This document shows positions 3,754 to 55,939 of a DNA stretch of 64,000 nt, piece after piece. Source of the DNA: a virus. Lineage: Duplodnaviria; Heunggongvirae; Uroviricota; Caudoviricetes. The notes beneath the pieces were generated by a model. That model saw only the letters and a program-made list of their open reading frames with translations. It did no database searches and was not told the DNA's origin. How positions within the stretch are numbered: the stretch's first letter is position 1; each line of letters opens with the position of its first letter. The stretch is taken from positions 5,712 to 69,711 of the IMG/VR virus record IMGVR_UViG_3300037502_002518. One strand, given 5' to 3'. A program made the translations under genes and the position numbers.

Positions 3754-4014
3754 GTGGATTTTATGCAGAGGTTAAAAAATACTTTCTCTAAAAGATTAAA
3801 AATAGCAAGAAAACAAAGTGGGCTGTCATTAAGGAAATTAGCACCATTAGTTGGGACTACTTATGTTAGCTTAAATCTTTGGGAAAATGGTAAAGCATTC
3901 CCACAAGAGAGATTTATATACAAAATTTCAGAAGTATTGGATGTTAGTTCTGATTGGCTATTAGGTTTTGACAATGAGTATAATTACTGTCCTCATTGTG
4001 GTGAAAAATTGTAA
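3754..4014 (+). CDS. putative HTH XRE-family transcriptional regulator with C-terminal CxxC (alternative start ATG 3763)
   Basis: RLKIARKQSGLSLRKLAPLVGTTYVSLNLWENGKAFP is a classic XRE HTH. Confidence 0.55.
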   Translation: MDFMQRLKNTFSKRLKIARKQSGLSLRKLAPLVGTTYVSLNLWENGKAFPQERFIYKISEVLDVSSDWLLGFDNEYNYCPHCGEKL

Positions 4015-19798: not shown

Positions 19799-20525
19799 GC
19801 TAAAAAAGGGGAAAGAAAGTGAGAATTATTTTCACTTAAATAATTTGTTAAATATTCCAAAAGATGGAAAGATACAACTAAATAAAGACAAAGAGGCTGT
19901 AAAAGAATATTTCCTTGAGTACGTGAATCCAAATACAATGTTCTTTCATTCATTAGAAGAAAAGTTGGGATATTTGATTGAAAATGATTATATCGAAGAA
20001 GATATGATTAACAACTATAGCAAGGAATTCATTAAAGACTTATTTAAAAAGGCATATGACAAGAAGTTTAGGTTTAAAAGTTTTATGGGAGCATATAAGT
20101 TTTATTCCCAATATGCTATGAAGACAAATGATGGAAAGTGGTTCTTAGAACGATATGAAGACCGTGTTGTCTTTAACGCTTTAAAGCTTGCAATGGGAGA
20201 CGAAAGTTTAGCAGATTCGCTGGTTGAAGAAATGATAAACCAACGTTATCAACCTGCAACTCCAACATTTTTAAATGCAGGGAAAAAGAGACGTGGAGAA
20301 TTTATTTCATGTTTCCTGCTTACAATTGATGACTCTATGAATTCAATTGGACGTGCAATTAATTCTGCTTTGCAACTATCGAAGCGAGGTGGAGGGGTAG
20401 GAATCGGATTATCTAACATTCGTGCCAACAATGACCCAATCAAAGGTGTTGAAGGTTTATCGGACGGTGTTGTTCCTGTCATGAAGTTGTTAGAGGATTC
20501 GTTCTCATATGCCAATCAACTGGGT
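19785..20525 (+). CDS. nrdE: class Ib ribonucleotide reductase alpha subunit NrdE, exon 1
   Basis: [24 protein letters not shown] motifs; ends ...SYANQLG. Confidence 0.8.
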
Positions 20526-20848
20526 TGACATACAGGCTCAGTATAAAACGGGTTAACTGCTGGAACTTCTTTAGAGCTTAATGCGCCACAACGCAACTGG
20601 AAACGGTAATCGTAAAGGCTTAAAAAGTATTAAGATTAGAAAATCAGCATCCACTCCTCTAAGTGTTAAAACATAAGAGGAAGGTTCAACGACTAAGTGA
20701 CAGCAAAAGTGATTTTGTTGTCCGAATCCGTTAAATGTTTAATAAATAACACTCTTTATTAAATATGAAATATATAGTCTGTTCTTTAGGGAGACCTAAA
20801 GAGTGTAGCAGAAATGACTGCACCCCACGTTAGTGGAGTAACAAAAAG
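20526..20848 (+). mobile_element. group I intron 1 in nrdE (323 nt, no ORF)
   Basis: R-like AACGACTAAG and S-like ATATAGTCTG P7 elements; 5' exon ends U, intron ends G; splicing restores ANQLG|QRSGSGVTYL. Confidence 0.7.
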
Positions 20849-21265
20849 CAAAGGTCTGGTTCTGGAGTAACGTACTTGAATATCTTCCACCCAGATGTGA
20901 TTGACTTTCTTGCAGTAAGAAAAGAGAATGCAGATGAAAAGGTTAGAATTAAAACTTTATCTCTTGGTTTAGTTGTCCCAGACAAATATTATGAGCTTGT
21001 AAAAAACAATGAGAATATGTATCTTTTCTCTCCTTATGATGTTGAAAAAGAATATGGAAAACCTTTCTCATATATTGATATTACAAAAGAATATGACAAC
21101 ATGGTTAATAATAAAAATATTCGTAAATCTAAGATTAAAGCGAGAGAATTAGAAACTGAAATTAGTAATCTTCAAAATGAAAGTGGTTATCCTTATATTA
21201 TTAATATTGACCATGCAAACAAAGCCAACCCAGTTCATGGAAAAATTATCCAGAGTAACTTGTGT
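20849..21265 (+). CDS. nrdE: NrdE exon 2
   Basis: ...YLNIFHPDVIDFL ... SNLC. Confidence 0.75.
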
Positions 21266-21542
21266 AAACAAATGCACCTTTAAGTAGGAATGCTTATCGA
21301 AAATCCTGTTAAACGGGGAAACCCTCACTTGAGACAATCCCGTGCTAAATTTATTTGATACATTATGTTTTTTTAAATAATAAATGCCGAACGACTATCC
21401 CACTATGGGAGTACACTACAAGCCTTTGGTGGTGGAAAAGCAGGACATCCAGAACGGATGATGATATAGTCTGCTCTATATGGTGACATATAGCTGTGGT
21501 TAGCCCACGCTCTAATTTTAGCGAGATTAGAGGAACAAAAGG
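21266..21542 (+). mobile_element. group I intron 2 in nrdE (277 nt, no ORF)
   Basis: AACGACTATC and ATATAGTCTG elements; junction restores SNLC|VEIFQV... with the expected 23-residue spacing to DISCNLGS. Confidence 0.7.
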
Positions 21543-25095: not shown

Positions 25096-25296
25096 GGTTT
25101 CAGTATTCCAAACATTGAATCAATCGTAGCTCGATATGCCGAAAAATCATATACAACACACTATGAATACTTTATTGACAAAGGTATTGATGATAACAAA
25201 GCTCAAGAGCTTGCTGAAGAAATGACTATTAGAGAGATTGAACAAGGGTATCAAGGGTTTGAAACCAAGTTGAACACTGTCTCAAATTCGCTGGGT
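25096..25296 (+). CDS. nrdD: NrdD exon 2
   Basis: in-frame segment between two introns. Confidence 0.6.
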
Positions 25297-25597
25297 TAGT
25301 TATATGGCTCACCTTACTGTAAACGGTAAGGATAATAGGTGGTGAACCTGCAAAAGCAGGGTGTGTATTAAATTAATATGCTAACGGTAGAACCTAAATC
25401 TTTTGACAAGGCAATACCGTGCCAAGTTTAAAGAGAAATCTTTTTAAAGGTGTAACGACTAAGATGTACGTCCTAAGTGTATACACATATGGATATGAAA
25501 TCTGTACAGACAGAGTGAAATTCTTTGTTTGGAAGCGCCACCCACCTAAAGCTTAAAGCTATGGTGAAGATATAGTCTACACTTATAGAAATATAAG
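25297..25597 (+). mobile_element. group I intron 2 in nrdD (301 nt, no ORF); 5' part closely resembles intron 1
   Basis: AACGACTAAG and GAAGATATAGTCTAC elements; shares AACCTGC-AAAGCAG...CTAACGGT...GGCAATACCGTGC block with intron 1. Confidence 0.7.
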
Positions 25598-26863
25598 GTT
25601 ATTGTGCAAATCCCTTTCGTCTCCATTTCATTTGGTTTAGACACGTCAAAATGGGGCAGAATCATTTCTAAGAAAATGTTGGAAATACGTGAACGTGGTA
25701 TAGGAAGAGACAGGATTTCAGCGGTGTTCCCGAAGCAAATTATGTTTATTCGTAGTGAAATCAACAAAAATGAAGACAGTCCAAATCATGACATTTATTT
25801 AAAAGCAATTGAATGTAGCAGAAAACGTTTGTATCCAGATTATTTAAGCTTAGACTCACCAGAGACGAATAATCTTGCAGAGATTTATGAACGCTCTGGA
25901 CAGGCAGTGATAGCAATGGGATGTAGAGCGTATTTAAGCCCTTATGAATATGAGGGTAAAGAGATTTACAACGGTCGTTTTAACATTGGAGCAGTCAGTT
26001 TAAACTTACCTAAAATGGCAATTGAAGCGAATGGCAACAAAAGTAAGTTTTTAAAATTGATTGATAAATATTCTGAAATGGTTTTTGAAATTCATGAAGA
26101 TTATTACCAAAGACTTTCACAGGTAAAGGCTTCAAGTAACCCACTTCTATTTATGGAAGGTGGCTCATTTAAAAAGCTAAAGGCAGATGAAACAATTGAA
26201 GAGTTACTAAAAGGAGCAACAGCATCATTAGGATACGTTGGTGTTGAAGAAGCAATGGTTGCATTAACTGGGGAAGGAATTACAAAGAATAAAGATTTCT
26301 CCATTGAGACAGTGCAAAGGCTAAAAGATAATGTCAATAAAGCATCAAACAAATACAATAGACTTGGGGCTTTGTACAGTACCCCCGCAGAAAATATTAT
26401 CTACCGTTTTAATAATATTAATCGTGAACAATATGGAGAAATTGACGGTGTAACAACGAGAGAATACATGACAAATTCTTTTCATGTCCCTGTTTTTGAA
26501 GATGTTTCAGTATTAGAGAAGATTGATTTTGAGTCGAACTTTCACTCTATCGCAACAGGTGGAAGAATTTCATATTGTGAGTTCCCTTACAATGTAGATT
26601 CAAAGATTTTAAAACAAGCCATTGATTTTGCAATGGAAAAAGGTTTATACTATGGTGTCAATGTTATTTCAGCAACATGTAATGATTGTTCTCACTCTGG
26701 TGATTTTGAGGATTGCCCAGAATGTGGTTCAGACAATGTGACATCAGTTTCTCGTGTATGTGGATATTTAAGTTTTGGAAAAATTAAAGGGGATTCACGA
26801 TATAACCTTGGTAAGCAAGCAGAGGTAAGAGAAAGAGTAAAACACACATTTGGAGGTTGCTAA
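25598..26863 (+). CDS. nrdD: NrdD exon 3 (glycyl-radical domain, RVCGYL motif, C-terminal Zn site CNDCSHSG...CPECG)
   Basis: glycyl radical motif SRVCGYLS. Confidence 0.75.
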   Translation, partial: VIVQIPFVSISFGLDTSKWGRIISKKMLEIRERGIGRDRISAVFPKQIMFIRSEINKNEDSPNHDIYLKAIECSRKRLYPDYLSLDSPETNNLAEIYERSGQAVIAMGCRAYLSPYEYEGKEIYNGRFNIGAVSLNLPKMAIEANGNKSKFLKLIDKYSEMVFEIHEDYYQRLSQVKASSNPLLFMEGGSFKKLKADETIEELLKGATASLGYVGVEEAMVALTGEGITKNKDFSIETVQRLKDNVNKASNKYNRLGALYSTPAENIIYRFNNINREQYGEIDGVTTREYMTNSFHVPVFEDVSVLEKIDFESNFHSIATGGRISYCEFPYNVDSKILKQAIDFAMEKGLYYGVNVISATCNDCSHSGDFEDCPECGSDNVTSVSRVCGYLSFGKIKGDSRYNLGKQAEVRERVKHTFGGC

Positions 26864-45810: not shown

Positions 45811-46698
45811 ATGAGTCAATATGACGTTCAATATGATGCACTATTAAAAGATATTCTTGAAAATGGTTATTCAAACGAGGGTGAATATACAGATGCAAAA
45901 TGGAAAGATGGAACACCTGCTTACACCAAGTCTTTAATTGGGAGACAATTCCGATTTGACAATTCAGAGATTCCTATCCTTACAACAAAGCGTGTTGCAT
46001 GGAAGACAGCTATTGCAGAGATGCTTTGGATTTGGAATATGCGCTCAAATGTTGTACAAGACTTAAGAAACTTAAACATGACATTTAATGGTGGAAAAAA
46101 CAAATCTGTTTGGGATGAATGGGAAAATAAACAAGGTACTATTGGTTTAGCATATGGACACCAACTTGGAGAGATTCACTCAACAATTCCTGTAGAAACA
46201 AAGCTTGGAGTTTTCAACATGGGTGCTGACCAAGTTGACCAATTAATTTGGGGGTTAAAAAACAAGCCTCATTCTAGACGTCATGTTACAGAGATTTGGA
46301 ATGTTAGAGATTTGGATAGAATGATGTTGCCACCATGTGTTCATTTGACCCAATGGCATGTAAAAGGTGGAAAGTTGCATCTAGAAGTAAGAGCTAGAAG
46401 TAGTGATGTAATTTTAGGCAATCCATTTAATGTTACACAATACAGTGTTTTACATCGTATGATTGCACAGGTGACTGGTTATGAATTAGGAGAATTTATC
46501 TTCTATATGGGGGATGTTCATATTTATGACCGACACATTGACCTTGCAAAAGAACAAATGGAACGTGAACAACATCCTGCACCAAAATTATGGATTAATC
46601 CAGAAGTTAAAAACTTTGAGGACTTCCGAATTGAAGACTTTGATTTAATTGATTATAAGCACAGTGGAGACTTAAAAGCGGAGATTGCTATATCATGA
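45811..46698 (+). CDS. thyA: thymidylate synthase (ThyA family)
   Basis: LPPCVH..QWHV and RSSDVILGNPFNVTQY correspond to ThyA active-site regions (Asn retained, uracil-type); followed by DHFR. Confidence 0.75.
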   Translation: MSQYDVQYDALLKDILENGYSNEGEYTDAKWKDGTPAYTKSLIGRQFRFDNSEIPILTTKRVAWKTAIAEMLWIWNMRSNVVQDLRNLNMTFNGGKNKSVWDEWENKQGTIGLAYGHQLGEIHSTIPVETKLGVFNMGADQVDQLIWGLKNKPHSRRHVTEIWNVRDLDRMMLPPCVHLTQWHVKGGKLHLEVRARSSDVILGNPFNVTQYSVLHRMIAQVTGYELGEFIFYMGDVHIYDRHIDLAKEQMEREQHPAPKLWINPEVKNFEDFRIEDFDLIDYKHSGDLKAEIAIS

Positions 46699-49324: not shown

Positions 49325-49943
49325 AGAGATTGAGATGGAGTTTTTAAAGAAATTAAACAAAATTAGAGGCACAATGTCTGATAGTGACCTCTTGAATAAC
49401 TTGAGTGCTATTCAAGAAATGAATTGGGACAGTGACTACTCTATCTTGAATAACATCTCTCATTCACGACTAGAAAAAATCCTCAATGGTGAGTATGAGA
49501 TTGCAGGGTCAAAATTTAAACGAGATGACTGGGTTACAGTTGAATGGTCTGATTTTGAACACACTACACACAAAGTAAATTCTTGTGTGAATGAACTTGT
49601 TTCAATCAATTTAGCTTACCATTCTGGTGTGTCTAACCATTTACCCCCTGCAGATATTGTAAGATATGCAACAAGTGAAGAAATTAAACAAGAGAAATCT
49701 AGAGCTTTTTGGTATCAGATTGGAAGAAAACCATATGAATATAAAGTCGGTGATATTGTTAAATATAAAGGGTATATTCGTATAGTTAAAGAAGTGAAAA
49801 CGGGTGGTCATGGGAATACAGACCTCATTTTGTCTGAGAGTAATGAAAAACACAATTTTTCATATCACATTGAGAATGTATACTCTGATGATTTAAAGAT
49901 TGTTTCTACAGCAGAAAGACGTTTGGATTGGGAGGAGAAATAA
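49311..49943 (+). CDS. hypothetical protein (210 aa)
   Basis: ORF. Confidence 0.45.
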   Translation: MKKNEEIEMEFLKKLNKIRGTMSDSDLLNNLSAIQEMNWDSDYSILNNISHSRLEKILNGEYEIAGSKFKRDDWVTVEWSDFEHTTHKVNSCVNELVSINLAYHSGVSNHLPPADIVRYATSEEIKQEKSRAFWYQIGRKPYEYKVGDIVKYKGYIRIVKEVKTGGHGNTDLILSESNEKHNFSYHIENVYSDDLKIVSTAERRLDWEEK

Positions 49944-50002
49944 TGGCTAAATTAATATTTAGATATGGAAGTATGAATTCTGCAAAGTCAGCAAATTTAA
50001 TT
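49943..50002 (+). CDS. tdk: thymidine kinase, 5' fragment/exon (MAKLIFRYGSMNSAKSANLI; P-loop), boundary approximate
   Basis: TK N-terminal P-loop read directly; ATG overlaps upstream stop (TAATG); frame terminates 12 codons later. Confidence 0.6.
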
Positions 50003-51517
50003 ATCTCCCGAAAGAAGTCGCCCTCTTCAAGCGTGTAAAAGGCGCATTCAGACGGTAAGGGGGGAGATGAATTTAGGTCAAGCGGTAGATTAAAACTATC
50101 TTTCAATACTTTTTGTGTCAGTTCATAAATTGTACCAGAAAAGCTATTGATATAATTTTTTATTTGACACTTATCAATCACTTCTACTAAGATATTTGGG
50201 AATTCGATTAACTTGGGAACTATTTCCACTGATGTTCTCATCTAATTAGTATATACTAAGAATATGACAAAGGAGGTGACATATAAAATGTTAAAAGCCT
50301 ACAAATATCGACTATATCCAACCGAAAGTCAGAAAGAGTATTTTTCCAATTGTTTTGGTTGCGCTCGATTCATTTACAACAAAATGCTCAGCGACAAAAT
50401 CGACCACTATAAAGAAAACAAGAAAATGCTTTATACCACGCCTGCTAAGTACAAGAAAGAGTTCCCGTTTTTGAAAGAGGTGGACAGTCTAGCATTGGCA
50501 AATGCTAGACAAAATCTGGAAAGAGCTTATAAAAACTTTTTCCGAGACACGTCCGTCGGTTTTCCAAAGTTCAAATCCAAGCACAAGTCGAAATCGAGCT
50601 ACACCACTAACAATCAAGGTGGAAACATTCGTATAGAATACGGAAAAATCAAACTTCCGAAAATCGGATTCGTAAAACTGAAGCAACATAGAATGTTTGA
50701 TGGGGTTATCAAATCTTGTACGATTTCTATGAATAAGTCAGAAAAGTATTTCATTTCTATTCTAGTAAAATCAGAAGAGAAAGAAATGGAAATCACCGAA
50801 AGAAAAATTGGGATTGATTTAGGTATTTCTGATTTTGCGATTACCACGAACGATTTAGGAGAATCCGTTAAATATGATAACCCAAAGTATTTATATAAAT
50901 CAGAAAAGAAACTAAAAAAATACCAACGTTCTTTGTCTCGCAAACAAAAAGGCGGAAAAAACCGCAATAAAGCTCGTATTTAAGTCGCCAAAAAACACGA
51001 AAAGATTGCCAATCAAAGGAAGGACTTCTTGCACAAACTAACTAAACAGATTACGGACGAAAACCAAGTCATCGTAATCGAAACGCTGTCCAGTAAGAAC
51101 CTGATGAAGAACCACAAACTGGCAAAAAGCATTGGTGATGTCAGTTGGTTTGAATTCGTCCGTCAACTTGAATATAAAGCGGAACAAAAAGGTCGTACAA
51201 TTATCAAAGCGGACAGATTCTATCCATCCAGTCAGATTTGTTCCGCCTGTGGACATCGAGATGGAAAAAAAGGCATTGCATATACGAGAATGGGATTGTC
51301 CTAGTTGTGGTGAACACCTTGACCGAGACATCAATGCCAGTAAGAACCTCTTGGCATTAGCCAAGTAAAAGAAAACATATGAGGCAGGGACTGCCTTTTG
51401 AGCCTACCCCATATCCGATTCCTCTGTCTACATGACATTCGTGCAGACAAGAATGGAGTTAGTAGGAAGCCCCACTTTAAAATTTTAAGAATTTAAGTAG
51501 TGGGCAGTTCACTCATG
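50003..51517 (+). mobile_element. IS200/IS605-family (IS1341-like, tnpB-only) element or IStron-like intron inserted in tdk (boundaries approximate)
   Basis: 1.5-kb insert between tdk halves: 260-nt 5' non-coding, TnpB ORF, 150-nt 3' hairpin-rich non-coding; no TnpA. Confidence 0.6.
50264..51368 (+). pseudogene. tnpB: tnpB (OrfB, RuvC-like RNA-guided nuclease family) disrupted by an in-frame TAA (50981-50983) and a frameshift at an A7 run (51265-51271)
   Basis: N-terminal YKYRLYPT; RuvC-I GIDLGI, RuvC-II VIVIETL, zinc finger CSACGH...CPSCG, Ruv[13 protein letters not shown]. Confidence 0.75.
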
Positions 51518-52027
51518 CAACATTACAACTATGAAAGCGGTGGAAAAAACACATTAGTTTTCAAACCATCTGTTGATACAAGAAGTGACAAAGTAACATC
51601 TCGTGCTTTATATACCGAGATAGAAACAGATTATATTGTTGGACAGAAGGAATATAACTCAATGTTGCCTATTGTCTTACATCATATGCCTAGAGTTGTA
51701 TTTGTTGATGAATCCCACTTCTTAGACAAGCAACAGATTGAAGAATTAGCTATCATAGTTGACAAAATTGGTGTAACCGTCCAAGCTTTTGGTCTTATGA
51801 CAAACTTTAAAGGAGAACTCTTTGAAGGAAGTAAAAGACTTGTTGAATTATCAGATGTTGTAGAAAGGGTTCGTTCTGAGTGTACAGAGTGTTCTAATGA
51901 GGGAATTATGAATGCAAGATATATTGGTGGCAAACTACAGACAGATGGAGATACAGTTATGATTGGTGCTGAAGAAAAGTACAAAGTCTTATGTAGACGT
52001 TGCTACATGAAAGCTATGCAAGAATAA
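51518..52027 (+). CDS. tdk: thymidine kinase, 3' fragment/exon (...YNYESGGKNTLVFKP ... C-terminal zinc ribbon CTECS...CRRC), boundary approximate
   Basis: TK core and C-terminal Zn ribbon. Confidence 0.6.
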   Translation, partial: QHYNYESGGKNTLVFKPSVDTRSDKVTSRALYTEIETDYIVGQKEYNSMLPIVLHHMPRVVFVDESHFLDKQQIEELAIIVDKIGVTVQAFGLMTNFKGELFEGSKRLVELSDVVERVRSECTECSNEGIMNARYIGGKLQTDGDTVMIGAEEKYKVLCRRCYMKAMQE

Positions 52028-52031
52028 ATTA

Positions 52032-52075
52032 AAAGGTAAAGTTTGTGAGATAATCATAGACTTTACCTTTTTGTT
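52032..52075 (+). terminator. terminator hairpin AAAGGTAAAG...CTTTACCTTT (19-nt loop) plus TTTTTGTT
   Basis: seen in sequence after tdk. Confidence 0.55.
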
Positions 52076-52076
52076 A

Positions 52077-52085
52077 TGGTATAAT
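52077..52085 (+). promoter_or_regulatory. extended -10 promoter TGgTATAAT followed by TGCCAAATAAAA (52093-52104)
   Basis: seen in sequence upstream of polymerase. Confidence 0.45.
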
Positions 52086-52123
52086 GTAATTGTGCCAAAT
52101 AAAATACTAAGGAGGAATTATTA

Positions 52124-55100
52124 TTGTTAGATTCAAGTAATTTTGCAAGCCTGCATTGCCACTCGCATTTTTCGCTTCTCGACTCAATCATGAGTCCAGA
52201 AGACATTGTAAAACAAGCAAAAGAATTGGGCTATAAGGCTGTGGCTGTAACGGAACACGGAAATATGCATTCATTTATTGATGGATACAAAGAAGCTAAA
52301 AAGCAGGGGATTAAGTATATCTTTGGGTCTGAAGTTTATGAGACAGACGACATGGATTATAAAGAGTCAGATGCAAGTCGATACCACTTGCTTTTGTTAG
52401 CTAAAAATGAGACAGGATTAAAAAACTTATTCAAAGTTGTGTCTGAGGGTTCGACAAGAGGTTTCTATGGTAAGCCTCGTATTGATAGAGAACTACTATC
52501 GGAACACTCAGAAGGTCTTATTGCAACAAGCGCTTGCCTTGCGAGTAGATTGATGAGGTTGCTTCAACAGGGCTATTGTCCATGTTGCAAACAAAGCAAT
52601 GGTGAACATAAAGAGTCGTGCGACAACGATGAAGTGTTTGAACCAAAGTGGGAAGAAGCCAAAGAAGAATTACAAAAATATAAAGACATTTTTGGTGACG
52701 ATTTCTACATTGAAATTCAATCACATGATACTCACGACCAAAAGATTGGGAATCAGCGTATTCTTCAATTGGCAAAAGAAACGGATACAAAATTTATTTT
52801 GACATTTGATGCTCACATGCCAGATGGCAGTGAAAAAACGCTTGATATTCATAGACGTTTTATTGAAGTTAGTCAAAAAGGTCGTGAAGTTGGAGAGACT
52901 TATATTGGTTGCTACCAACAAGATATGGAAACGGTTTATGATACCTTAGTCCCTCAAATTGGACAAGAAGATTTAGAGCAAGCTATTTTAAATACTGGAG
53001 CTTTAGCAGATTCATGTGAAGACATTGAATTGGACTTAAACAGACCACCAATTATGCCTCATATTGAATTCCCAAAAGAGTATAAGTCAGATGTTGACTA
53101 CTTAAAAAAGCTTGTCAATGATGGGTGGAAAGAAAGGGAAATCCACAAAAAAACAAAAGAAGAACAAAAGGTTTATAAAGAACGTGTTCTTCATGAGATG
53201 GACATTTTAGAAAAGCTTGATTATGCAGGTTATTTCCTTATCATTCACAAATTTATGAATGAATTTAGAAAGCAAGGTATTCCATTAGGCTGGGGACGTG
53301 GGAGTGCGGCTGGGTCTTTAGTCCTGTATTTAATTGGTGTAACCAATGTAGATAGTGTTTATTGGGATTTAGATTTCTCTAGGTTTGCCAACTTAGGAAG
53401 GCGACAAATGGCTGATGTTGATATTGATATTTCAAAAGCCAAACGTGGAGAAGCCTTAAAAATAACAGATGATTTATTTGGAAATAAAAAAGTTGCACAC
53501 TTGTGTACATTTAATTCTTTCTCACCAAAAGTAGCAATTAAAGACTTGGGGAAAGTATTTGACCAAAGCGAAGATAGTCCATATTTTGGAAAGATTCCAT
53601 ATTCAATGAGGGAACGTGCATCTGGACTAATCACTGATGGTTCTAACATTGAAGACGTTTTAGAAGCATCTGGTGAGCTTAGAAGAATCAAGGAAAAGTT
53701 TCCACTGTGGATTGAATATGCACAAGAACTTCAAAACTTACCTAAATCTGTAGGTTCTCATGCTTCTGCAATCATCATTGCCAACGAAGACATTGTAAAT
53801 TATGCACCTGTTATGTATAACAAAGATGGTCGTGTAATGATGCAAGTTGAAATGGGGAATGCAGAAAAAGACTTGGGACTGGTGAAGTTTGATTATCTTG
53901 GACTTGAGAGTTTAGACGTGGTAAATGAGACTTTATCTCTTTTAGGAAAAGGGTGGGAAGATTTATTTGACATTCCATTTGACGATATAAGTACATTAAA
54001 AAACATTTATGCGAAAGGTAACACACTAGGAGTTTTTCAAATGGAATCACAAACCCCAAGAAAAATATTTGAAGACATGTATGAGGGGATTCCAGAAGAT
54101 AAATTTTCTATCAATGATGTTGTTGCTGTAAATGCTTTAAACAGACCTGCTGTATTGAGTCTTGGAATGCACAACAACTACATCAAAGGGAAAAGAGACG
54201 AATCAGAAGTGTCATACATTCACGAAGACCTTAGACCTATCTTAAATGAGACATATGGTGTTCTCTTATATCAAGAAGAAGCTTTGAATGTTTTTAGACT
54301 TGCAGGATTCCCAGAAGAAGAGGTAGACGTTGCCAGAAGGTGTCTGCGTGAGGACACAATGGTACACATGTCTGACGGAACACAGAAAAAGATAAAAGAT
54401 ATTAAAGTTGGAGATTATGTGTTGAGTTACAATGAGCGTGGAGTATCTGAACCAAAAAGAGTTAACAAAGTTTTTTTCAATGGGAAAAAGTATGTAAACA
54501 GATATTTGACAGAAGAAGGACATGAGATATTTTCAACAAAAGACCATCACGTTTTAGGTCTTAATGGATTCGACAGGATTGAAAATTTTAAAGTTGGTGA
54601 CTGTTTAATGACACCAAAAGAAAGTGTTCTCCCCCAATATGTTCCAACAATAATAAAAAATATCGAAAACAGCATTGAATTTTGTGATGTATATGACATT
54701 GAAGTTGAAGATAACCACAATTATATTGCGAATGATATAATTGTTCACAACTCAATTGGTAAGAAGATTCCAGAAGAGATGGACAAACTATACGACAAAT
54801 TTTCTAGTGGTCTTAAAAAAATAGGATGGAATAAGTTGCAAATAAAGGAAACTTGGGAATTGATTGCTTCACAAGCGACTTACAGCTTTAATAAATCACA
54901 TTCCGCCAGCTATGCAATTCTGTCCTTTGTTATGGCTTATCTAAAAAACCACCATCCAAAAGAGTTTATAACCGCCTTATTGACAGATAAAAGGGGAAAC
55001 TTTGAAGATACATCTCTGTATATTGATGAGGCAAACAGAATGGGGATAAAGGTTTTAGAACCAAATATAAACACATCCAATTTGGCATACACTATATCTG

Positions 55101-55939
55101 ATGAAGGTATTGTATTTGGACTAAGCTCAATTAAGGGTGTTGGCTCTAGTGCAGAGACAATTGTCGAAGAACGAAATACAAACGGTGAATTTAAAGATTT
55201 AGAAGACTTTCTTTCTAGAGTCAAGTCAGACAAGACAGTCACAATCGCACTAATTAAATCTGGTGCTTTTGGACAGGAGAAAAATGAGCTTTTAAAAAGA
55301 TACTTTGAATTTATTTACACTCCTACTTTGTGGAAAGAGAGAAAAACATCTCCATCTAGGAAAGAGTTGCAGAAATTCATTCCAGACTTATCACTAGAGG
55401 ACTTTAAATCTATGACAAAAGAGGATAGAATGGACACATTCAATAAATATAAACATGAGGTTTACAAAAAGTCTGAAGAAAAAAGAAAAATGAACCAATG
55501 GAATGACTTTAAAGACAAGTATATCTCTCATGATGAGTCTATGTATGAGTATGAAACATTGTCAATATTCATCAATGGTAATCCATTTGACCCATACAAA
55601 AACATTATCAAACCATTTGATAAATTTAAAGATGGTTCAGATAAAATACTTGTGGCAGGAACTATTACTGATATACAGAAAAAGAAAGATAAAAACAATA
55701 ACCAATTTGCTTACATTAGCCTATTGACTCCATATGATGGAATTATAGAAGGTCTTGTGTTTGCAGGAGTATATTCAGAAGTTTCTGACATGATTAAAAA
55801 GGGGAACAATATTGTATGTATCTCTAAAAAGAGTGGAAGTCAATTCATACCCAAGAAGATGAAATCTTTTGATGACTGGAAAGAGGTGATAAGACGAAAG
55901 AAGGAAAGAAAAGAAAAGATTGAAAAACTTAAGAAGTAG
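52124..55939 (+). CDS. DNA polymerase III alpha-like (DnaE-type, N-terminal PHP domain) replicative polymerase, contains a mini-intein
   Basis: PHP motif HCHSHFSLLDS...VTEHGNM; DnaE motifs; TTG start after AAGGAGGAATT. Confidence 0.75.
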   Translation: MLDSSNFASLHCHSHFSLLDSIMSPEDIVKQAKELGYKAVAVTEHGNMHSFIDGYKEAKKQGIKYIFGSEVYETDDMDYKESDASRYHLLLLAKNETGLKNLFKVVSEGSTRGFYGKPRIDRELLSEHSEGLIATSACLASRLMRLLQQGYCPCCKQSNGEHKESCDNDEVFEPKWEEAKEELQKYKDIFGDDFYIEIQSHDTHDQKIGNQRILQLAKETDTKFILTFDAHMPDGSEKTLDIHRRFIEVSQKGREVGETYIGCYQQDMETVYDTLVPQIGQEDLEQAILNTGALADSCEDIELDLNRPPIMPHIEFPKEYKSDVDYLKKLVNDGWKEREIHKKTKEEQKVYKERVLHEMDILEKLDYAGYFLIIHKFMNEFRKQGIPLGWGRGSAAGSLVLYLIGVTNVDSVYWDLDFSRFANLGRRQMADVDIDISKAKRGEALKITDDLFGNKKVAHLCTFNSFSPKVAIKDLGKVFDQSEDSPYFGKIPYSMRERASGLITDGSNIEDVLEASGELRRIKEKFPLWIEYAQELQNLPKSVGSHASAIIIANEDIVNYAPVMYNKDGRVMMQVEMGNAEKDLGLVKFDYLGLESLDVVNETLSLLGKGWEDLFDIPFDDISTLKNIYAKGNTLGVFQMESQTPRKIFEDMYEGIPEDKFSINDVVAVNALNRPAVLSLGMHNNYIKGKRDESEVSYIHEDLRPILNETYGVLLYQEEALNVFRLAGFPEEEVDVARRCLREDTMVHMSDGTQKKIKDIKVGDYVLSYNERGVSEPKRVNKVFFNGKKYVNRYLTEEGHEIFSTKDHHVLGLNGFDRIENFKVGDCLMTPKESVLPQYVPTIIKNIENSIEFCDVYDIEVEDNHNYIANDIIVHNSIGKKIPEEMDKLYDKFSSGLKKIGWNKLQIKETWELIASQATYSFNKSHSASYAILSFVMAYLKNHHPKEFITALLTDKRGNFEDTSLYIDEANRMGIKVLEPNINTSNLAYTISDEGIVFGLSSIKGVGSSAETIVEERNTNGEFKDLEDFLSRVKSDKTVTIALIKSGAFGQEKNELLKRYFEFIYTPTLWKERKTSPSRKELQKFIPDLSLEDFKSMTKEDRMDTFNKYKHEVYKKSEEKRKMNQWNDFKDKYISHDESMYEYETLSIFINGNPFDPYKNIIKPFDKFKDGSDKILVAGTITDIQKKKDKNNNQFAYISLLTPYDGIIEGLVFAGVYSEVSDMIKKGNNIVCISKKSGSQFIPKKMKSFDDWKEVIRRKKERKEKIEKLKK
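54341..54751 (+). mobile_element. mini-intein (137 aa, no endonuclease domain) in the polymerase: CLREDTMVH...IIVHN followed by S
   Basis: N-terminal Cys, block B TKDHH, C-terminal VHN+Ser; flanking extein ARR|SIGKKIPEEM matches the conserved DnaE RRAMGKKKPEEM region. Confidence 0.75.

Follow-up and report, generated by a model that had tools for sequence, protein, structure and literature searches.

A TnpB-bearing IS200/IS605-family element, probably a decaying passenger, interrupts the thymidine kinase gene of a phage

The closest relatives of the element described here are IS605 copies from Alkalibacterium and other Firmicutes (L005–L012), which carry either arc and tnpB or tnpA and tnpB; the arc+tnpB architecture has been described (bioRxiv 10.64898/2026.09.24.754181). 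TnpB7 of a Sulfolobus islandicus IS605 element is archaeal and experimentally active (PMC11043419). Its transposon-adjacent motif (TAM) is TTTAA, its RNA scaffold has UUCAC at its end, directly followed by the guide, and its native site, flanked by TTCAC, is left uncut. ISDra2 TnpB, for which structures exist (PDB 8BF8, 8EXA and 8H1J), has the TAM TTGAT. IStrons, among them CdISt1, BcISt1 and CbISt3/4 of phage c-st, are TnpB-bearing elements of IS605/IS607 type that lie in the sense direction in a gene, occur in phages and create no duplication (PMC4227781; bioRxiv 10.1101/2023.11.20.567912). Group A IStrons are inserted after a T-ending pentamer and terminate in TCAG, and the IStron splice rule is a 5′ exon ending in U (G in group B) and an element ending in G (PMC4227781). 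Group I introns of the T4 td/nrdB type are RNA-spliced ribozymes recognised by the Rfam model RF00028; they are likewise selfish, encode nucleases and interrupt genes of nucleotide metabolism.

We analysed a 64,000-nt stretch of phage DNA (the window), in which a single copy of a TnpB-bearing element lies inside the thymidine kinase gene tdk. Our preferred reading, to which we assign a probability of about 0.87, is that it is a decaying non-autonomous passenger of the IS200/IS605 family and not an intron. The gene and the element are laid out as follows.

49943–50000, + strand: tdk 5′ segment, codons 1–19 and the first base of codon 20 (open reading frame, Pfam TK)
49996–50000, + strand: TTTAA target site or TAM, directly 5′ of the element, in tdk codons 18–20
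50001–51512, + strand: the whole IS200/IS605-family element, 1512 nt, with an arc relic, a tnpB pseudogene and an omega-RNA, and without tnpA
51513–52027, + strand: tdk 3′ segment, starting at the second base of codon 20 and taking in Met21, the C-terminal Zn ribbon and the stop codon

The element separates the P-loop (GSMNSAKS, within the 5′ segment) from the remainder of the enzyme. A preliminary description of this DNA had correctly seen the split, reading the N-terminal 20 codons as 49943–50002 and the rest, about 1.5 kb away, as reaching 52027. Precise removal of 50001–51512 in silico gives the junction ...AAATTTAA joined to TCATGCAA..., which encodes SANLIMQHYNY, and the joined Tdk matches positions 2–176 of the 176 in Pfam TK (E 2.5e-34). 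Two insertion-free relatives, found by the comparison with related tdk genes that had been suggested, confirm these boundaries. One of them, P0242/L144, is 96% identical in protein, has an identical N-terminus over the 5′ segment and reads GCAAACTTAATTATGCAACAT at the junction; the other, L138, has 73% identity. SANLIMQHY, the product of precise removal, is encoded by both, and neither contains duplicated bases, so a target-site duplication is absent. Residues L19-I20-M21 of Tdk are invariant in 11 homologues. The boundaries first proposed (50002 and 51518, an insert of 1515 nt) would delete Met21, which both insertion-free relatives keep; the claim that Tdk spacing can be restored thus stands for removal of 50001–51512 and fails for that pair. 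A join of 50002 to 51515 was also considered and gives the same protein, one synonymous base apart, but the join of 50000 to 51513 is preferred because the bacterial copies fix the ends of the element. The 3′ segment has no stop and no frameshift, and every column invariant in an 11-sequence Tdk alignment is kept, necessarily so as that alignment includes the window's own sequence. The tdk coding sequence carries no lesion, in contrast to the several lesions of the element.

The ends were defined by alignment with 10 bacterial copies from Alkalibacterium and Carnobacteriaceae and then confirmed by L144 and L138. All 10 copies stop uniformly at GTAGTTCAC, corresponding to 51512 in the window, and their flanks diverge beyond it. 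On the left, the distance between TTTAA and the CCGAAAGAAGTC block is the same in the window as in four independent insertions in bacteria (L005 and L012, which show one locus, L006, L007 and L008), and the sequence farther upstream differs in each. Absence of tnpA is the defining trait of the non-autonomous, IS1341-like subclass. A Y1 (HUH) tnpA was found by tblastn neither in the element, where the preliminary description had also missed one, nor elsewhere in the window, and no tnpA remnant was found in the 5′ region of the element. Among the related copies, L005 has a Y1_Tnp tnpA between left end and tnpB, L006 has a nearly identical ORF in the same place, and L007 and L008 have a 45-aa ribbon-helix-helix (RHH, arc) gene instead. 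Members of the family abound in Alkalibacterium and other Carnobacteriaceae. Among 50,697 phage records searched by megablast with the locus, none matched. The plain IS200/IS605 (IS1341-like) insertion, one of two alternatives originally offered, is therefore upheld by homologous ends, the fixed TTTAA, the lack of duplication, an omega-RNA right end and the insertion-free alleles. Such clear IS605-type ends with a target-site signature had been named beforehand as the sequence evidence that would speak against an intron.

The likeness to L005–L012 covers TnpB (84–87% amino-acid identity to the repaired window copy), the right end with omega-RNA (85–91% nucleotide identity), the left-end blocks, the TTTAA target and the lack of duplication; elements of this type (bioRxiv 10.64898/2026.09.24.754181) also share an antisense RHH-type ORF between left end and tnpB. 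Unlike them, the window element lies inside a coding gene of a virulent-type phage genome, has no tnpA, has a degenerate arc-like ORF whose stop is lost, has a nonsense codon and a frameshift in tnpB, and has diverged central hairpins in its left end.

The 5′ 287 nt of the element are made up of three features.

50001–50095, + strand: left end (LE), homologous to the Alkalibacterium IS605 LE, with diverged central hairpins
50098–50241, − strand: probable relic of an arc-like (RHH) ORF, divergent from tnpB (moderate hhalign match)
50164–50193, + strand: candidate promoter TTGACA-18-TAAGAT upstream of tnpB (consensus scan, 10 of 12 matches)

The preliminary description had called this stretch 260 nt of non-coding sequence, a label that gives way to an LE homologous to those of bacterial IS copies and a probable relic of an antisense arc-like ORF. 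The blocks CCGAAAGAAGTC, GGGAGATGAAT and GTCAAGCGNTAG are common to the window and L005–L008. As DNA, the LE folds no better than expected in the window (z = 0.0) versus −2.7 and −2.5 in bacterial LEs. The arc-like frame is open through the LE to 49906 (111 aa), its stop codon having been lost. Against a 21-member Arc/RHH family built from arc–tnpB IS605 copies, hhalign gave a probability of 73% and E 3e-5 over 37 gapless columns with 32% identity. The relic has lost the conserved K4/R6/E8, Y22, R31 and R40, DNA-contact residues among them. For the 111-aa ORF there was no match in Pfam or PHROG and BLASTP against Arc was negative, the moderate match coming from profile comparison alone; no homologue was found outside the same phage. 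Promoter-like matches in the whole upstream region are not enriched relative to shuffled sequences.

The occupied 5′ region bears on the possibility that the element is an IStron, as the preliminary description had proposed in its other alternative: the insert would hold a group I or other ribozyme and splice out of the tdk mRNA, leaving the gene functional. The phage does contain at least three group I introns elsewhere.

20507–20801, 21256–21493 and 25288–25598: group I introns elsewhere in the window (RF00028)

Like the T4 td/nrdB-type introns, these three share with the element the habit of a selfish, nuclease-encoding insert in a nucleotide-metabolism gene, but they are spliced ribozymes detected by RF00028, whereas the element has the make-up of a DNA transposon with no splicing signature. 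IStrons do exist in phages (Clostridium phage c-st; PMC4227781), and the lesion-free tdk exons with all-synonymous polymorphisms would suit a gene restored by splicing. The ends of the element speak against it. Scarless joining needs C (51512) or T (51513) as the last base of the element, never G, and a 5′ flank that ends in A, or in U after a 1-nt shift. None of the 37 in-frame U...G pairs within ~35 nt regenerates SANLIMQHYNY, and the terminus is TTCAC where group A IStrons have TCAG. The earlier suggestion that the 5′ exon ends in U and the insert in G accordingly fails, as the flank reads ...TTTAA and the element ...GTTCAC. IStrons, for comparison, pair a U-ending target with a (TCA)G-ending intron.

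The remaining evidence concerns the ribozyme. The scan for group I models that had been recommended for the 5′ region gave no RF00028 match, and the entire insert has none at E ≤ 10, against 84, 52.5 and 48 bits for the phage's own introns. The P7-like motifs AACGACTA and ATATAGTC are absent from 50001–51512, as originally noted. Folding of the 5′ 287 nt gives z = −0.91 relative to shuffles, compared with −4.9 and −2.4 for two real introns, and 20 related TnpB loci have no intron at the gathering threshold. Furthermore, where IStrons have their ribozyme, the window element has a short region upstream of the ORFs (287 nt) that is filled by the putative arc relic and by an LE common to copies with tnpA immediately downstream. 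As a positive control, RF00028 was applied to stretches of phage c-st picked from the annotation as likely sites of published IStrons. Nothing was found around ISCbt4-a and CST132/133 at the gathering threshold or at E ≤ 10, and RAGATH-18, 3′ of OrfB genes, was the only model reported. The negative Rfam result is thus weak, and the case against an IStron rests on the logic of the boundaries and not on Rfam. With ends that break the U(−1)/omega-G rule, no detectable group I signal and an occupied upstream region, we regard an IStron as highly improbable; splicing is not supported by anything in the sequence.

The coding part of the element is a tnpB gene with two lesions.

50288–51368, + strand: tnpB pseudogene, 359 aa once repaired (three-frame translation, Pfam, PDB match)
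50981–50983, + strand: in-frame TAA at tnpB codon 232; the product ends before RuvC-II E265, RuvC-III and the zinc finger
51265–51271, + strand: A7 run with a +1 frameshift in tnpB, the frame switching between DGKK and ALHIREWDC; polymorphic

The repaired TnpB has D177 of RuvC-I, E265 of RuvC-II, CxxC pairs at 318 and 337 and a DRD at 345–347. It exceeds the cut-offs of Pfam PF12323, PF01385 and PF07282 (HTH_OrfB_IS605, OrfB_IS605 and Zn-ribbon), and aligns end to end with the ISDra2 TnpB structures (E 4.7e-81). Intact 359-aa homologues with 84–89% identity occur in Alkalibacterium, Carnobacteriaceae and metagenomes. The element had been credited with a full-length TnpB, and the domains are indeed all present in the DNA, but the reading frame is broken by the TAA and by the frameshift, which precedes the second CxxC. 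The window copy therefore matches ISDra2 TnpB over its full length, with RuvC D/E/D and zinc finger encoded, and differs from it in its TAM (TTTAA versus TTGAT) and in being truncated at codon 232. Exact look-ups of the 231-aa and 239-aa truncated products returned no match. The Logan contig L142 (73 kb), which may come from the same or a near-identical source as the window, has the TAA as well, and the position of this codon is uncovered by the other variant contigs. At 51265–51271 the metagenome variants L137 and L148 have A6 and an intact frame, and TnpB may still be active in variants other than the window and L142. A TnpB in contig L004, at first sight 97% identical and intact, was rejected as an intact phage tnpB, being identical to the phage only to ~50830 and then belonging to a different IS copy.

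The 3′ part of the element resembles the right end of the bacterial copies.

51333–51512, + strand: omega-RNA (reRNA) scaffold and right end, overlapping the 3′ end of tnpB and ending in GTTCAC; the 5′ limit is approximate
51513–51532, + strand: putative omega-RNA guide, placed directly 3′ of UUCAC (guide sequence TCATGCAACATTACAACTAT)

Nucleotide identity with the 10 bacterial copies holds up to 51512 and is followed by divergence, a sharp boundary of conservation, and the right end folds into a hairpin. The terminal GTAGTTCAC is kept in distant TnpB loci, including those of phages EFP01 and c-st, and the terminus GUAGUUCAC of the predicted omega-RNA is common to distant loci. The hairpins GGCAGGGACTGCC (51383–51395) and GTCTACATGACATTCGTGCAGAC (51426–51448), pointed out early on, are both present, and the first shows compensatory changes in four of its six pairs across 21 sequences. 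With a MAFFT alignment as input, RNAalifold returned a single omega-RNA hairpin, the remaining stems being misaligned. The window copy has an A·C mismatch at 51435, a position occupied by G in L148 and the bacterial copies, and, as judged by eye in the alignment, a C·A mismatch in the terminal stem. TnpB guides are about 16–20 nt long. The putative guide, joined to TTTAA in the insertion-free allele, would be a TnpB target. Experiments have shown TTTAA to be the TAM of an IS605 TnpB with a guide RNA that likewise ends in UUCAC (PMC11043419), and we count as a further likeness that the native site of this TnpB7, flanked by TTCAC, escapes cutting. TnpB7 is active, whereas the window copy is probably dead.

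An insertion seen in metagenome contigs might be an artefact of assembly, in which a host IS copy had been wrongly fused to phage sequence. L004, which is identical to the phage to ~50830 and from there on only ~90% identical with a foreign 3′ flank, is probably a chimera of exactly this kind; in both L137 and L148 the break falls at 51194, within the element. In the window, both junctions are in register, with the reading frame restored to the base. The 5′ junction is also found in L004, L142 and L143 and the 3′ junction in L137, L142 and L148, from different datasets and assemblers. These are five other datasets, six with the window. Because independent contigs from five other datasets span the junctions, the insertion is, on the evidence of the assemblies, real, and we give an artefact next to no chance.

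The variants also bear on the state of tdk. Among three insertion-bearing variants, all five tdk differences are synonymous (P ~0.004 if transitions were random), and together with the lack of lesions this could mean that tdk is still under selection. The decaying-passenger reading leaves the all-synonymous variation unexplained, and both this variation and an interrupted allele that seems fixed count against it. Three of the five changes fall within 64 nt beside the element, L137 has the outgroup states, and positions 51435 and 51514 are in four-gamete conflict. This pattern is better accounted for by recombination bringing in pre-filtered variation than by selection acting after the insertion. 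No insertion-free allele of exactly this phage was found in searches including IMG/VR and JGI metagenomes, which suggests that the interrupted allele is fixed. In IMG/VR the 3′ junction pattern was likewise unmatched, so the phage is seemingly unrepresented there.

A fixed interrupted allele with a lesion-free tdk raises the prospect of an intron at the level of DNA. Host TnpA acting in trans would excise the element precisely from some replicating genomes, restoring tdk during infection, while TnpB and omega-RNA of intact variants would cut insertion-free genomes and drive re-copying, keeping the interrupted allele fixed and tdk selected. In its favour, copies of this family that encode tnpA are found in likely hosts, IS605 elements leave no scar on excision, and retention guided by TnpB is an established process (bioRxiv 10.1101/2023.03.14.532601; summarised in bioRxiv 10.1101/2023.11.20.567912). 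The interrupted allele in six datasets, the lack of any insertion-free allele, the synonymous polymorphisms and the intact frames of L137 and L148 are all in keeping with this model. It is opposed by the truncated TnpB and degraded left-end hairpins of the window copy, by tdk variation that better fits recombinant import, and by the insertion-free progeny that it predicts in metagenomes and that were not found. On balance we judge it unlikely. That the interrupted tdk is functional and under purifying selection, the element being removed during infection, we hold to be quite unlikely. Scarless host-TnpA excision from single-stranded replication intermediates would be the most likely route of such removal, and an unrecognised RNA-level removal is less likely; with TnpB and omega-RNA from intact variants destroying genomes that lack the insertion, the element would amount to a ribozyme-free 'DNA intron' that has become fixed in a lineage of lytic phages. 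Should the synonymous variation stem from selection that acted after the insertion, the locus would offer a tractable example of an in-gene transposon tolerated without a ribozyme.

Under the preferred reading of a decaying passenger, the element would stem from Alkalibacterium-like bacteria, and a Y1 TnpA encoded by the host would have placed it in the phage genome during replication, using the lagging-strand template as its target in single-strand 'peel-and-paste' transposition. The + strand shows positive GC skew throughout the locus, which would fit its being the lagging-strand template, although transcription confounds this measure. Disruptive changes fall in the left-end hairpins and two omega-RNA stems of the window copy; the element would now be immobile unless TnpA were supplied in trans, and would be incapable of homing guided by TnpB and omega-RNA. 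The insertion would have knocked out tdk, a loss presumably tolerated because the phage carries genes for de novo dTMP synthesis (thyA, DHFR, dUTPase and RNR), which lie just upstream (L142 gene list). The result is mostly a correction, in that a suspected chimera of intron and transposon is probably a standard IS605-family TnpB element decaying in a dispensable phage gene. It would also document a host-to-phage IS transfer that persists across at least six metagenomic datasets, and it brings to hand a natural TnpB/omega-RNA family with a probable TTTAA TAM and many intact 359-aa relatives. The nearest isolate of the phage has 49% identity in DnaE, and the element offers a link between this uncultured lineage and hosts that are Alkalibacterium or related Carnobacteriaceae.

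The first 20 codons of the phage thymidine kinase gene tdk (from 49943) are parted from the remainder, which ends at 52027, by about 1.5 kb. The joined Tdk protein covers the entire Pfam TK model, and its alignment with other Tdk proteins runs ungapped through the junction, bearing out the preliminary description of tdk as interrupted. The ORF within the insert is a TnpB/OrfB carrying all three Pfam domains, and its close intact relatives (359 aa, 84–89% identity) are common in Alkalibacterium species and other Carnobacteriaceae. Ten bacterial copies all finish in ...GGTAGTTCAC with flanks beyond that differ in every one, and this uniform terminus places the right end in the window at 51512. 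At the left end, the blocks CCGAAAGAAGTC...GGGAGATGAAT...GTCAAGCG are common to the window and four independent bacterial copies, in all of which TTTAA lies upstream at equal distance, preceded by unrelated sequence. These shared ends define the element, whose length had been put at 1515 nt:

50001–51512, 1512 nt: IS200/IS605-family element, 3' of TTTAA (49996–50000), no duplication, from comparison of its ends with bacterial copies

In silico deletion of the element joins ...AAATTTAA to TCATGCAACAT..., coding N-L-I-M-Q-H. Two insertion-free relatives, contig L144 (Tdk P0242, 190 aa, 96% identical), reading GCAAACTTAATTATGCAACAT, and contig L138 (73% identical, same gene order), reading GCCAACTTGATTATGCAACAT, both encode SANLIMQHY and at the sequence level confirm the boundaries. 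Since L19-I20-M21 of Tdk is invariant across 11 homologues, the join 50002/51518 proposed earlier, which loses Met21, is wrong. Experiments on one IS605 TnpB have established TTTAA as its transposon-adjacent motif (TAM) and UUCAC as the end of its guide RNA, immediately followed by the guide (PMC11043419). In the insertion-free alleles the first TAM position is C, not T (CTTAA/CTTGA; L144 ~115–125, L138 ~3770–3780), a synonymous Asn codon change. NTTAA tolerance has been reported for one TnpB (PMC11043419), and the C might protect the site or might have no such effect.

Five other assemblies contain identical insertion junctions. L142, a 73-kb contig with 1 mismatch in 12.6 kb to the window, contains both tnpB lesions described below (TAA and A7); L143 and L004 carry the 5' junction and L137 and L148 the 3' junction. 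L004 (ENA ERZ27247441 k141_522644, locus 1–1887) matches the window at 100% identity over 49647 to ~50830 and at ~90% past that point, with another flank following GTTCAC. This contig was probably assembled as a chimera, with the phage copy fused to a different IS copy, so its "intact" TnpB (P0001) was rejected as a phage allele. The independent metagenome contigs L137 and L148 both begin at window position 51194, inside the element; the shared break resembles repeat-induced assembly breaks and implies the presence of further IS copies in those samples. A search for an insertion-free allele of this exact phage found none.

The preliminary description left a choice between a plain IS and an intron/IS chimera (IStron) spliced at U/G boundaries. 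As we read the sequence, the strongest argument against an IStron is boundary logic, which is independent of any model. Splice sites that restore the gene must coincide with the ends of the transposon or, given a shared T, lie 1 nt further right, so that the −1 base is A or U and the last intron base is C or U, never the omega-G. An exhaustive listing of in-frame U...G pairs within ~35 nt contained none that regenerates SANLIMQHYNY. Published IS605-type IStrons are inserted after a T-ending pentamer and have the terminus TCAG (PMC4227781). The Rfam group I intron model RF00028 gave no signal at E ≤ 10 across 49500–52300, and scored 84, 52.5 and 48 bits on the introns of this phage:

20507–20801, + strand: group I intron, 52.5 bits, above the Rfam gathering score
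21256–21493, + strand: group I intron, 84 bits, above the Rfam gathering score
25288–25598, + strand: third group I intron candidate, RF00028 48 bits, E 8.6e-11

The candidate lies just under the gathering score of 50, and so was missed by the gathering-threshold window scan; it has P7-like motifs AACGACTA (25454) and ATATAGTC (25570). The first two are presumably the ribonucleotide reductase (RNR) introns whose P7 elements had rightly been reported missing from the insert, where the P7 motifs of the phage's introns are indeed absent. The 5' 287 nt of the element have no more structure than shuffled sequences (z = −0.91), as against z = −4.86 and −2.38 for two genuine introns, and 20 related TnpB loci contained no intron at the gathering threshold. 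The RF00028 negative is weak on its own, because the model also found nothing, at the gathering threshold or E ≤ 10, in Clostridium phage c-st stretches where, by annotation, its published IStrons were expected. On this sequence evidence, with ends that match bacterial copies, a TTTAA target, no duplication and insertion-free alleles, the element is most likely a plain IS insertion, and an IStron is not supported. Phage c-st has the RAGATH-18 motif (RF03064, 61–64 bits) immediately downstream of three OrfB/TnpB genes, and the motif is probably a marker of the omega-RNA or right end of each:

L147 (c-st 100001–150000) 1374–1443, − strand: RAGATH-18
L147 26181–26242, − strand: RAGATH-18
L147 36256–36316, − strand: RAGATH-18

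When repaired, the TnpB can be aligned from end to end with structures of ISDra2 TnpB (E 4.7e-81). The gene in the window, previously taken as full-length, is broken by an in-frame TAA at 50981–50983 (codon 232), downstream of RuvC-I D177 and upstream of RuvC-II E265, both CxxC pairs and the DRD motif, and then by a frameshift that one surplus A causes in an A7 run (51265–51271). The frameshift is either recent or private, because L137 and L148 have A6.

The window contains no tnpA, in agreement with the earlier observation. Among bacterial copies, the left end of L005 is followed by a Y1 tnpA and then by tnpB, and L006 has an ORF nearly identical to this tnpA at the same place. Two others, TnpB-only copies from Alkalibacterium, have an antisense ribbon-helix-helix (RHH) ORF instead:

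L007 ~2010–2147, − strand: Arc-like RHH ORF, 45 aa, divergent from tnpB and situated between it and the left end
L008 ~2340–2477, − strand: Arc-like RHH ORF, 45 aa, same arrangement

This ORF family is conserved, with 41 homologues (Alkalibacterium, Heyndrickxia, Bacillus and others), named RHH or CopG/Arc/MetJ by some source databases and in many cases nameless. An arc+tnpB architecture with a divergent promoter was recently described (bioRxiv 10.64898/2026.09.24.754181). An antisense ORF in the window begins 46 nt upstream of tnpB, and an hhalign comparison with the Arc family profile matches its residues 12–48 without gaps (probability 73%, E 3e-5). It has lost the conserved DNA-contact residues of the family and its stop codon, has no homologues besides the profile match, and is read here as an arc relic. 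The 260 nt once considered 5' non-coding would thus consist of the left end (~95 nt), which has lost the hairpins of bacterial left ends, the putative relic (~145 nt) and a short promoter region.

The omega-RNA scaffold comprises the 3' 144 nt plus the end of tnpB and is 85–91% identical to bacterial copies. Its terminus GTAGTTCAC is also found in TnpB loci that are only distantly related, those of phages EFP01 and c-st among them, and its hairpin GGCAGGGACTGCC shows covariation in four of six pairs. Position 51435 creates an A·C mismatch in the window where L148 and bacterial copies have G, and by-eye reading of the aligned sequences places a C·A mismatch in the terminal stem.

The three 3'-junction variants differ at five tdk sites (51514, 51538, 51568, 51577 and 51814), all synonymously (probability ~0.004 under randomly falling transitions); the 319 nt of the element open to comparison have a single frameshift indel and a single change that breaks a stem. 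Such a pattern could mean that tdk is still selected, as in the less favored explanation that a host TnpA excises the element in trans and keeps tdk useful. However, three of the five changes lie within 64 nt adjoining the element, the L137 states are those of the outgroup L144, the four-gamete test shows a conflict between sites 51435 and 51514, and 14 dnaE differences are likewise clustered within 334 nt (52993–53326 versus L137/L148). Polymorphisms among insertion-bearing variants, all synonymous and clustered near the element and in dnaE, suggest frequent recombination among co-circulating variants, and recombination with intact-tdk relatives is a simpler explanation than continued selection on tdk.

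The history leading to the observed position, ends, TAM, omega-RNA, tnpA absence, tnpB lesions and insertion-free alleles may have begun in an Alkalibacterium-like host, from which the element would have entered when TnpA transposed it as a single strand into the lagging-strand template. At the locus the + strand has a positive GC skew, which is compatible with such an insertion. The element would have inactivated tdk, a loss the phage probably tolerates because thyA, DHFR, dUTPase and RNR are present, and it is now likely immobile and decaying. Both GC and AT skew flip sign at ~56 kb (positive over 1–56000, negative beyond), probably at a switch of gene orientation or replication direction.

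TnpB elements and IStrons have already been documented in phages (IStrons, PMC4227781), and the element in tdk is a further case of a known type. Megablast found no close sequenced relative of the phage. The best DnaE match (49% identical) is Alicyclobacillus phage KKP_3916, the closest cultured relative by DnaE, which itself carries a TnpB-like stretch (H21 46003–46235, − strand; 67.5% identical to insert positions 1021–1253) annotated as a hypothetical protein. The window DnaE (52124–55939, + strand, 1271 aa) has an intein inside (Pfam Intein_splicing, L142 gene list). In L138 (4461–8632), tdk and dnaE are separated by an HNH ORF, and a further HNH-repeat ORF divides dnaE into two parts.
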